From: Escherichia phage vB_Eco_SLUR25 | Sequence record: LT907986.1 | Strand: one strand, 5' to 3' | Length of the DNA stretch: 58,998 nt | In this document: piece after piece, positions 48,143 to 50,320 of the stretch | Layout of the letters: every line of letters begins with the position of its first letter | How positions within the stretch are numbered: the stretch's first letter is position 1 | Translations under genes and position numbers: made by a program | The notes under the pieces: model-generated | The model's input: only the letters and a program-made list of their open reading frames with translations | The model's database searches: none | What the model was told of the DNA's origin: nothing

Positions 48143-50320
48143 ATGGCGACTCGTTTATACGGCGTTTTATTGGATGGTTTGAATAAACCTATTATCAACG
48201 CCACAGTAGCACTTATTTCGAAAGGAAATACTCTTACCGTATTAAACGGAAGCGAGGCAATATTCCGTACAGACGCACAAGGTGCGTATAACGTAACAGT
48301 TCAGACTGGTCATTATAAAGTTATTATTGGACCGCAAGGTATTGAGCCATATAAAGCTGGTGAGATTGTTATTTATTCAGATAGTAAAGAAGGTTCACTA
48401 AATAACTATCTTACTAACTGGGTCCCGGAGGAATTAACTCCGGAAGTAATTGCACAAGTAAAAGAACTTGTGGCTAATTCTGAAACCTATGCACTCCAAG
48501 CAGGTCGATCTGCGGCTTCTGCACAAGCGGACGCTACCGATGCGCGTAACAGCAAGGCAGCTTCTGCAACGTCTGCGGCGGAAGCATTGACTTATAAAAA
48601 TGACTCAAAGGCAAACGCAGATGCAGCTAAACAAGCCCAAGCTGGAGCGGCGGGATCTGCTAACACTGCAACACAAGCTGTAACCACAGTTACTCAGCTT
48701 AAAGCTGATGTTACTCAGTTAAAAACAGATACTCAAGCAATTAAAGACTCCGCGTTGACTGAAGTCGCAACAGCTAAAGCCGACGCAGTCAAAGAAGTTA
48801 ATACAGCTAAAACATCGGGTGTTGCTGCGGTCAACACCGCTAAGACGGAAGCAATTAATGCAATAACCCCGCTAAAAGACGCTGCCGCAGCTTCTGCAAC
48901 TCAAGCGGGTGCTAGTGCAACCGAAGCGGTGAAACAAGCTACAGCAGCCGCAGGCAGCGCTGCAACCGCAGGGCAGAAAGCTACCCTAGCAACAGAGGAA
49001 GCTAACCGCGCGAAAGGGTATGCGGATTCAATGGACCCCTCCAGCATAGCTAAACTTGATGCTGAAAATACTTTTACCAAAAAGCAGAAGTTTAACCTTA
49101 ATGCAGAATTTGGGGCAAACGCTGGTAATCCTCTTTTAATCAAGAGTGTTAACCCAACAATTAAATTTGAAGAAGTTGACGCCACAGGTGATGTAACTGG
49201 CTATGTTATGGTCATGGAGGGCGGTAACATACAACTCCAGGAGAACGATACTGGTAGCACTAATGTTGTCTTTAACTACAGCGCTTCAGCTAAAACAGTC
49301 ACGCTACCATCTCACAAGACTGGTTCATTTGGGGAAGTTGGTCAGCTCAGGACAACTGGGAGTTATAGTCAAGACAGCATATTAATTAGAGCGACGGGAG
49401 CGGGTTCGGCTTACACAGCTTATACCGGATCTTCCAGTCCATCTATTGTAAGATGGCGATCAGGGCTTGCTACCAGCGGGGGCTATGCATTCTACAACTA
49501 CAATGAGGATGGCACGTATCATTCTACTCCGGTAGCCATTGGGGGTGCGGGTACTGGGATTGCAATTGCGTTCTCTACCAATATTACCGGGCGAATTACA
49601 GCAGGTGGCGGGGACGCAGGAACCGACGCTGCAACGTTTAGATCCAATGGTTCAGCGTCTTATGTTTGTAACTTAGCATCAAATGGAGTTATTCGAACCC
49701 GTGTGGGATTTAGCGACACTGTAGGGAGCTATGGATTTCAAACATATACCACAGCAGGTTCGCCTGAGTATTGGATTAGACTTCCGAGTGCTGGCGGAAC
49801 CCTTGCACTGCAAGGAACATCGGGCTTAGCATATAAAAAGGAGATCAATGACGGTAATCCTATTGATGCTTTAAACCGCATCATGGCACAACGCATGGTC
49901 ACTTTTATTTATAAGGACGATGAACAAGAAAGAATAAGATTTGGTATTATTGCAGAAGAATCGGAGAAAGTCACACCACAATATGTGAAGCACAATGAAG
50001 AGATTTATGAGGATGTATACGAGGATGTTTATAAGGATATATACGAGGATGTACCTGTAGAGGTTACTGTAGATCATACCGACCCCGAAACTGGTATTAC
50101 AGAACAAATCAAAGAACAACGCATTGAACAGAAATTTATTCGTCGTGAAGTCGAGAAGAAAATTGTTTCACAGAAGACCCGAGACAGACCTTCAATTGAT
50201 ACTAACCCTATTGTTATGGACTTGATGGGCGCCACTCAAGCGCTCAAAGCAGAAATTGATAGTTTGAAAGCGGAGATAGCTGCGTTGAAGGGCAATGTGG
50301 TTAACAACAATCTGCCATAA
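48143..50320 (+). CDS. tail fibre protein with C-terminal intramolecular chaperone (S74-like) domain
   Basis: ATG 48143 with GGGAG RBS (48131 is GTG); Ala/Thr/Lys-rich coiled region; C-terminal GLAYKKEINDGNPIDALNRIMAQRMVTFIYKDDEQERIRFGIIAEE resembles chaperone-of-endosialidase domain. Confidence 0.65.
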   Translation: MATRLYGVLLDGLNKPIINATVALISKGNTLTVLNGSEAIFRTDAQGAYNVTVQTGHYKVIIGPQGIEPYKAGEIVIYSDSKEGSLNNYLTNWVPEELTPEVIAQVKELVANSETYALQAGRSAASAQADATDARNSKAASATSAAEALTYKNDSKANADAAKQAQAGAAGSANTATQAVTTVTQLKADVTQLKTDTQAIKDSALTEVATAKADAVKEVNTAKTSGVAAVNTAKTEAINAITPLKDAAAASATQAGASATEAVKQATAAAGSAATAGQKATLATEEANRAKGYADSMDPSSIAKLDAENTFTKKQKFNLNAEFGANAGNPLLIKSVNPTIKFEEVDATGDVTGYVMVMEGGNIQLQENDTGSTNVVFNYSASAKTVTLPSHKTGSFGEVGQLRTTGSYSQDSILIRATGAGSAYTAYTGSSSPSIVRWRSGLATSGGYAFYNYNEDGTYHSTPVAIGGAGTGIAIAFSTNITGRITAGGGDAGTDAATFRSNGSASYVCNLASNGVIRTRVGFSDTVGSYGFQTYTTAGSPEYWIRLPSAGGTLALQGTSGLAYKKEINDGNPIDALNRIMAQRMVTFIYKDDEQERIRFGIIAEESEKVTPQYVKHNEEIYEDVYEDVYKDIYEDVPVEVTVDHTDPETGITEQIKEQRIEQKFIRREVEKKIVSQKTRDRPSIDTNPIVMDLMGATQALKAEIDSLKAEIAALKGNVVNNNLP

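Follow-up and report, generated by a model that had tools for sequence, protein, structure and literature searches.

In phage T5, the C-terminal intramolecular chaperone of pb1 consists of a loop after the catalytic Ser, an alpha/beta body, a hairpin "tentacle" and a C-terminal coiled-coil helix (residues 1371-1394), and a Ser1264/Lys1269 pair cuts the Thr1263-Ser1264 bond, while Arg1250, a sensor Arg from the neighbouring chain, couples cleavage to correct folding (PMC4690869). The tentacle of the precursor (residues 1332-1371) has 40 residues and is 50 Å long, and the three tentacles embrace the tip domain, mainly via hydrophilic contacts and salt bridges (PMC4690869). In T5 and K1F alike, a beta-hairpin tentacle occupies this position of the fold, and its length varies: the tentacles of K1F are about 20 Å longer than those of T5, and those of phi29 are much shorter (PMC4690869). 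Here we analysed the side tail fibre gene of Escherichia phage vB_Eco_SLUR63 and a short tandem repeat of YEDV-type units near its 3' end. The window, that is, the whole stretch of DNA analysed, is the complete genome of this phage (58,998 bp, LR025196.1), rotated with respect to the deposited record, and the fibre protein of phage SLUR25 is identical to that of SLUR63.

Several other described systems are related to this fibre. LtfA is the L-shaped tail fibre protein A of T5-like phages (PDB 8HQZ chain d; Golomidova et al. 2016, PMC4728585), and the S74 domain and cleavage site of LtfA and LtfB of phage DT57C have already been predicted in print (PMC4728585). The K1F endoNF chaperone (PDB 3GW6) is the founding member of Pfam Peptidase_S74. 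In eukaryotes, the intramolecular chaperone auto-processing (ICA) domain of MyRF (PDB 7DC3), a membrane-bound transcription factor, has a short hairpin, and its cleavage frees the functional N-terminal part from the membrane, outside any phage context. Lateral fibres of the Queuovirinae, to which SLUR63 belongs (Seuratvirus), are hypervariable downstream of the 5' end of their genes and are probable O-antigen binders (PMC8594841). The phage was isolated from cattle slurry on the host E. coli K-12 MG1655 (PMC5758909; PMC4698387). S74 fibre chaperones are well described; a repeat-bearing tentacle extension found no mention in the papers cited here.

Results

A Peptidase_S74 chaperone domain at the fibre C-terminus

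A routine Pfam scan was sufficient to pick up the chaperone, which lies at the extreme C-terminus of the fibre (residues 560-725 of 725), right after the distal tip. The Peptidase_S74 profile (PF13884, chaperone of endosialidase) matched residues 565-616 over profile positions 6-58 of 58, with 31.9 bits against a cut-off of 22 and E = 1.7e-7. The family profile matched DT57C LtfA at 1.2e-79 and also the MyRF ICA domain at 5e-4. LtfA (8hqz_d) was the closest relative of solved structure by sequence, and neither phmmer nor family-profile searches gave a sequence-level match to T5 pb1 (4UW8). An AlphaFold model of residues 536-725, with a predicted local distance difference test (pLDDT) score of 82.9, showed a small alpha/beta body, a long beta-hairpin and a C-terminal helix. 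Its best structural matches were the four solved intramolecular-chaperone structures (K1F, GA-1, T5 and MyRF), and the Foldseek matches included 3gw6 (K1F endosialidase chaperone, 2.5e-6), 7dc3 (MyRF ICA) and 3gud (GA-1). The C-terminal helix also aligned to the C-terminal helix block of DT57C LtfA.

The predicted catalytic residues were well conserved. In an alignment of the query and 20 homologues (A1), Ser560 was invariant in 21 of 21 sequences and Lys565 was present in at least 90%, and the Ser-x4-Lys spacing of the two equals that of T5 Ser1264/Lys1269. A possible counterpart of the T5 sensor Arg1250, which stands 14 residues before the Ser, is Arg546, exactly 14 residues before Ser560, but its column is not conserved among the 20 homologues. 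The first-pass annotation of this DNA, made from its letters alone, had likened the last ~130 residues to chaperones of this kind. The profile match to the chaperone-of-endosialidase domain, the conserved Ser/Lys pair and the LtfA match bear out the assignment, with the correction that the domain spans 166 residues (S560-P725). These results indicate that the fibre ends in an S74-type intramolecular chaperone; family membership and the catalytic motif can be read directly, and self-cleavage would be expected from T5, K1F, GA-1 and phi29.

Compared with the described systems, the domain follows the element order of T5 pb1 and has the same Ser-x4-Lys dyad, but the T5 domain has 133 residues with a 40-residue tentacle, whereas the domain here has 166 residues with a predicted 71-residue tentacle that contains a tandem repeat. 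LtfA of DT57C, DT571/2, Gostya9 and HK6 shares the GTSG-x3-K cleavage motif, the FGIIAEE-QYIKHN block, the RDRPS-NPIVMDL block and the terminal helix. In DT57C, however, the hairpin of LtfA contains a single YEDI and ends in a short tip (LDEEGNK), without the 42-residue extension described below; its tip domain is unrelated to the one here, and its N-terminal anchor is of the T5 type and not of the lambda Stf type (PF08400). The K1F endosialidase is a tailspike with a triple beta-helix stalk and long tentacles, and its chaperone is only about 15% identical; no tandem repeat was noted in the K1F tentacle, although its sequence was not inspected for one.

The YEDV repeat lies inside the chaperone, in a rare lineage-specific block

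The repeat consists of four 12-nucleotide (nt) units, in order TATGAGGATGTA, TACGAGGATGTT, TATAAGGATATA and TACGAGGATGTA, and lies within the peptide EEIYEDVYEDVYKDIYEDV (residues 619-637, nt 49997..50053). Tandem Repeats Finder (TRF) gave the array a score of 62 for period 12 and of 84 for period 24, the latter being the highest score in the whole 59-kb window, with 92% matches at period 24. The period-12 self-match (27/36) was likewise the window maximum; when the codons of the gene were shuffled 2000 times, it was never equalled, and the period-4 match of the peptide was equalled by 4 of 5000 residue shuffles. The YEDV repeat is therefore real, and no other tandem repeat in the window is as strong. 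Its DNA units, earlier called near-identical, deserve that name only for some pairs, as pairwise identity ranges from 8 to 11 of 12. The longest exact repeat is the 13-mer TATACGAGGATGT, found at 50016 and 50040, 24 nt apart, and the codons TAT and TAC alternate in the array with a 24-nt period. A 10-mer, TTTATAAGGA, occurs both at 49908..49917, within the conserved chaperone segment FIYKDD, and at 50028..50037, in the third unit (VYKDI); this recurrence is probably due to chance.

The first-pass annotation had placed the repeat just downstream of the chaperone motif region. It in fact sits inside the chaperone, between the N-terminal part modelled by Pfam (565-616) and the conserved C-terminal block and helix (679-722); in alignments it is flanked by the FGIIAEE...QYVKHN block before and by the RDRPS-NPIVMDL block and helix after. 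Since it lies within S560-P725, the repeat would leave with the cleaved fragment.

The array runs into a block that the relatives lack. All 20 A1 homologues were gapped opposite it, and the phmmer alignment to DT57C LtfA (8hqz_d) was split into query residues 542-628 and 674-716. At the same site, the relative P0022 reads ...HNNEIYDEV-LDEEGN-IVEQLTRDRPS.... Tentacle-tip length was measured in 255 relatives as the distance between the anchors QYVKHNE and RDRPS. This distance was 18-20 residues in 163 proteins and at most 32 in 246, 51-57 in five distant proteins with an "AVYEDV" motif, 60 in the query and its 98%-identical twin, and 93 in one protein (P0115); one further relative gave a spurious multi-domain anchor distance. 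Of the relatives, 52 had a single [YF][EDK][ED][VIL] unit and one had two; four units were confined to the query cluster. At the array position itself, relatives carry a single seed unit, YEDI in DT57C LtfA and YDEV in P0022.

Only 4 of 247 phage records with a related chaperone carried the block, namely SLUR63, Skure, Gostya9 and HK6. A tblastn search of 50,697 phage records together with a search of 1.84 billion representative proteins showed no carrier beyond SLUR63/SLUR25, one 98%-identical assembly contig, Skure, Gostya9 and HK6, and scans of IMG/VR, metagenome contigs, GTDB genomes and complete E. coli genomes showed no further one. In the protein search, nearly all matches split the query in two, the exceptions being its own cluster and a few distant matches at about 30-40% identity. 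One locus (L018) with an apparent long match to the block turned out to have an ordinary short S74 domain. Judged from these comparisons, the block is a rare, lineage-specific extension that stays within the known variability of tentacle length.

The repeat is predicted to form the acidic strand of a long hairpin

Two AlphaFold runs with different alignments and fragment lengths predicted the same long beta-hairpin (pLDDT about 87-93 and 85-88), at the position in the fold that corresponds to the T5 pb1 tentacle 1332-1371. The rising strand (615-646, net charge -9) holds the YEDV array and is followed by the turn HTDPETG and the returning strand (653-685, net charge +4). The four YEDV-type units make up most of the acidic rising strand, and the stretch of the returning strand that faces them is rich in Lys and Arg (EQKFIRREVEKKIVSQ). 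No internal DNA repeats were detected in the returning strand, where a TEQI/KEQR/IEQK periodicity is seen at the peptide level only. The hairpin would thus have about 71 residues here compared with about 29 in close relatives, which, scaled from T5, would give roughly 90 Å and 35 Å. On these models, the YEDV repeat most likely provides the acidic strand of a lengthened tentacle, with a basic strand as its partner, and would be lost together with the chaperone on cleavage.

Origin and necessity of the extension

The repeat most likely arose by tandem duplication of one ancestral YED(I/V) unit, with a 24-nt duplication as the last step, because the TAT/TAC codons alternate at a 24-nt period, the array matches itself at 92% at this period, and relatives have one seed unit; the sample behind this reading is small. 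Compared with those single-unit relatives, the unit would have gone from one copy to four in this lineage, and the array is now fixed at four copies.

The fold of the tip does not seem to depend on the extension. In the relatives P0022 and P0023, tip and chaperone are 53-57% identical to the query over about 410-520 residues and the tips have essentially the same length, with a tentacle tip of 18 residues. A homologous tip with a short tentacle indicates that the tip fold does not require a long one, and the idea that tentacle length is co-adapted with the tip domain was rejected on the same evidence. The extension is therefore probably tolerated or mildly useful and not essential.

A far more general idea, that the length of S74 tentacles may be tunable and may evolve as tandem copies of a Y-E-D-V strand unit of four residues are added, along with a basic strand to match, is speculative, and we consider it quite unlikely. 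If a longer acidic/basic hairpin did alter folding yield, cleavage timing or the range of tips served, these proteins would provide a natural length series. A long tentacle tip was also seen in P0115, an unrelated S74 protein of 463 residues. Its 93-residue tentacle tip (residues about 330-420) has an acidic rising run of period 4, AVYEDVYEEVDEDVIEDLIGDITEPVFEDAF, with VYEDVYEEVDEDVIEDL as the stretch that resembles the YEDV array, and a repetitive returning part rich in Gly, Val, Arg and Lys, GERVVGQGVIGQVKTGTRRVMQVVGRKQVGERKIGERY. This suggests that the same design arose independently there.

Weighing of the alternatives

Taken together, the reading that the fibre ends in a self-cleaving S74 chaperone, with the YEDV repeat in a lengthened tentacle that arose by duplication and has a fixed copy number, is in our judgement likely to be correct. 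Several points weigh against it. Cleavage is predicted from T5, K1F, GA-1 and phi29, and not from observations on this protein or its closest relatives. The hairpin was predicted for a monomer, and the alignments used were shallow, with 21 and 26 rows, all of which except the query have a gap at the block. With hydrophobic residues at i, i+3, i+4 and i+7 and many Glu, Gln, Lys and Arg, the sequence could form amphipathic helices as well; the hydrophobic-moment spectrum is uninformative for a period-4 repeat and does not tell the two conformations apart. The monomer run of tip plus chaperone gave a poor model of the tip (pLDDT 52), and contact of the long tentacle with the tip is presumed by analogy. 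Finally, duplication accounts for only 12 of the 42 extra residues, and the rest of the block weakly resembles the distant long-tentacle "AVYEDV" S74 domains; recombination with those domains may have given rise to the block, but the alignment scores were only marginally above those of shuffles (reached by 1-66 of 1000).

The best of the other explanations is that the 48-residue block is a neutral insertion, a tolerated loop, disordered or helical, that neither lengthens the tentacle nor affects folding. Close relatives with the same tip fold lack the block, tentacle length varies widely in the family, down to the very short one of phi29 (PMC4690869), the sequence pattern is compatible with helices, and the hairpin was predicted from shallow alignments. 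However, the two halves of the block are complementary in charge (-9 and +4) and joined by a turn-like DPETG, the segment PVEVTVDHT shows strict beta-type alternation, and AlphaFold confidence was high in both runs. The block has also changed very little between SLUR63 and the T5-like phages. The hairpin region differs at 3 of 213 nt from Gostya9 and at 1 of 213 from HK6, whereas the adjacent tip differs at 33 and 49 of 777 (a divergence of 4-6%); for the whole chaperone region, the difference from Gostya9 is 1.4%, compared with 4.2% for the tip. From this pattern the block would be either conserved or recently exchanged. We therefore regard a neutral loop as unlikely, and the lengthened tentacle remains the preferred reading.

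It had also been proposed that the repeat could expand or contract by slippage. As a contingency element, its 12-nt units would be gained and lost in replication and would give fibre variants or on/off switching. The tandem repeat is indeed the strongest in the window, two exact 13-nt copies lie 24 nt apart, and in one relative, Skure, the array differs in length. But the array has only four imperfect units, and 13 nt is its longest exact repeat. The unit is a multiple of three, so that gain or loss keeps the frame and cannot switch the gene off. Four units were found in each of SLUR63, SLUR25, P0272 (a 98%-identical protein from an independent assembly), Gostya9 and HK6, five independent sequences from two phage families with up to about 5-8% nucleotide divergence, and no in-frame difference in unit number was seen among them. 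In addition, the repeat lies in a portion predicted to be cleaved off, so variation would leave the virion surface unchanged.

The length change in Skure is of another kind. In Skure (99.1% identical), the fibre gene lacks exactly the 11-nt spacer (50029..50039) between the 13-nt exact repeats, which are left in perfect tandem, and the frame is broken; a slippage product of 12 or 24 nt would have been expected. A second frameshift, A5 to A4 at the position matching 48721 in the shaft, accompanies it, so that the two deletions together amount to 12 nt, and the gene is annotated as two coding sequences. These frameshifts may be assembly errors, or may reflect decay of a dispensable fibre (a pseudogene) on a rough K-12 host, as happened to stf of lambda PaPa. 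Among the relatives compared, neither copy-number polymorphism nor a frame-changing perfect tract was present, and we found no evidence of a contingency locus. The slippage proposal is thus very unlikely.

We know of no freed phage S74 fragment with a reported second function. A function of its own for the freed acidic 19-kDa fragment, for example on a host or phage protein and served by the extended charged hairpin, is highly improbable: the homologous domain of eukaryotic MyRF (fold match 7dc3) does serve the release of a functional product and the block is conserved, but there is no evidence here for any partner or activity, about 250 relatives lack the block, and the T5 pb1 chaperone is given only tip folding and then release as its role (PMC4690869).

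Exchange of the fibre module with T5-like phages

A segment of 2.1 kb (48597..50742) was 95.2% identical to Gostya9 (L003, 2979..5104) and 92% identical to HK6 (L004, 2995..5096), both Demerecviridae, with the four-unit repeat included. It extends from fibre residue ~152 through the tip, the chaperone and the terminator and ends ~46 codons into the next gene, and blastn placed the left recombination breakpoint at about 48597, inside the shaft. A receptor-binding module has thus recently been exchanged across phage families. The gene downstream of the fibre is a 66-residue stump in Gostya9 and a full-length resident in Seuratvirus genomes (Greed, slur01 and CSP1), which suggests that a Seuratvirus-like phage was the donor and the T5-like lineage the recipient.

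Most amino-acid differences from Gostya9 and HK6 fall in the tip domain. In the tip (49043..49819), the ratio of nonsynonymous to synonymous codon differences was 27:5 against Gostya9 and 35:10 against HK6; in the chaperone it was 3:4 and 3:3. Such ratios suggest diversifying or relaxed selection on the receptor-binding tip. A diversity-generating retroelement behind the tip changes was considered and rejected, as the substitutions are not adenine-specific.

Fibre architecture and genomic neighbourhood

The gene product is the side (lateral) tail fibre of a Seuratvirus and an ordinary member of a known family; it matched PHROG tail-fibre families (best 9e-49). As shown in Table 1, it joins, in a standard combination, an N-terminal anchor of the lambda Stf type to an Ala-rich shaft, a variable tip and an S74 chaperone. 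Residues 1-91 matched the "Tail fiber protein" of PDB 9e7m in phmmer (3.8e-14). Lambda Stf has the same N-terminal attachment domain (PF08400; PDB 9e7m) and the same place just downstream of the J-like tip gene, but is served by a separate assembly chaperone, Tfa; here no Tfa-type gene follows, and the S74 domain supplies the chaperone in cis. The shaft is presumably helical, to judge from its composition. The tip domain was predicted to be beta-rich, with low confidence in the monomer model of tip plus chaperone.

Table 1 Positions in the window of the features of the side tail fibre gene and its 3' flank.
Feature	Residues	Position (nt)	Strand	Basis and remarks
Side tail fibre gene	725 aa + stop	48143..50320	+	Open reading frame list; annotated 'side tail fiber' VAY27798.1 in LR025196.1
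N-terminal virion-attachment domain, lambda Stf type	1-134	48143..48544	+	Pfam PF08400 phage_tail_N, 1.4e-22, full length
Ala/Thr/Lys-rich shaft	about 111-300	48473..49042	+	Low-complexity alignment to Ala-rich N-terminal part of DT57C LtfA
Distal tip domain, presumed receptor-binding part staying in the virion	301-559	49043..49819	+	53-57% identity to P0022/P0023 tips
Intramolecular chaperone (Peptidase_S74) domain	560-725	49820..50317	+	166 aa, 19.1 kDa, pI 4.75
Predicted cleavage/catalytic motif S560-G-L-A-Y-K565	560-565	49820..49837	+	Conserved columns; T5 spacing; predicted scissile bond T559-S560
Predicted long beta-hairpin 'tentacle'	615-685 (71 residues)	49985..50197	+	Two AlphaFold runs
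Tandem repeat, 4 x 12 nt, YEDV YEDV YKDI YEDV	622-637	50006..50053	+	TRF, repeat finding, shuffle tests
Lineage-specific block	626-673 (48 aa)	50018..50161	+	Alignment A1; replaces 6-aa hairpin tip (LDEEGN in P0022), net gain 42 aa
C-terminal alpha-helix, presumed trimeric coiled-coil core	689-722	50207..50308	+	AlphaFold helix in both runs (fragment residues 154-187 in first)
Intrinsic terminator 3' of fibre gene		50331..50360	+	Terminator scan: 8-bp stem, 5 GC pairs; AAGGAGCC-AAAC-GGCTCCTT then T10; strong

The fibre gene starts with an ATG codon at 48143, with a Shine-Dalgarno-like GGGAGA just upstream. The upstream neighbour encodes a J-like tip protein of 1009 residues with Phage_Tail_Tip and Ig_J domains. 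Between these two genes, an open reading frame for 77 residues on the minus strand (47827..48060) carries a lipoprotein signal, MKRALIMLALTLSLTAC, and is followed by a hairpin like that of a terminator (47825..47798); lipoproteins that block the receptor in superinfection exclusion, such as Llp of T5, are encoded at a similar position. The next gene downstream of the fibre (50457..51287, +) encodes a Gly-rich protein. Its N-terminal part, especially 50577..50750, is Gly-rich (GGDGFGGEAGAAGIGGAIGGLIGSWIGNGWGGNGGWGGRG), and its C-terminal end, PTPPTPPTGCC, is coded by a 9-nt tandem repeat (51255..51275). The C-terminal two thirds have homologues in Seuratvirus, Nonagvirus, T1-like and some T5-like phages, and some of these homologues are annotated as "putative sugar-binding protein". 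Pfam gave no match for either this gene or the 77-residue minus-strand product.

Discussion

By analogy with solved homologues, maturation of the fibre may proceed as follows. Three copies of the last 166 residues would join through their C-terminal helices, and the beta-hairpin tentacle of each copy would run along the trimeric tip as this folds. When folding of the tip is complete, Lys565 would activate Ser560, which would cut the T559-S560 bond. The freed fragment of ~19 kDa would stay out of the virion, and the mature fibre would consist of residues 1-559, about 57 kDa, compared with 76 kDa at full length. As the repeat segment would be discarded with the fragment, it should have no direct effect on receptor recognition, and any effect would be on folding or on release of the chaperone.

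Overall, the finding mostly changes little. The fibre belongs to a known family and is ordinary apart from the lineage-specific extension of its tentacle. It does bear on how the protein would be handled. For host-range engineering or expression of a soluble receptor-binding protein, the mature fibre is best taken as residues 1-559, the chaperone domain must stay in the expression construct for folding, and the YEDV repeat is not to be read as an element of host range or phase variation. Long- and short-tentacle chaperones on homologous tips would offer a simple system for the contribution of tentacle length to fibre folding, and the 95%-identical fibre module in a Seuratvirus and T5-like phages is a clear recent case of receptor-binding module exchange across families.

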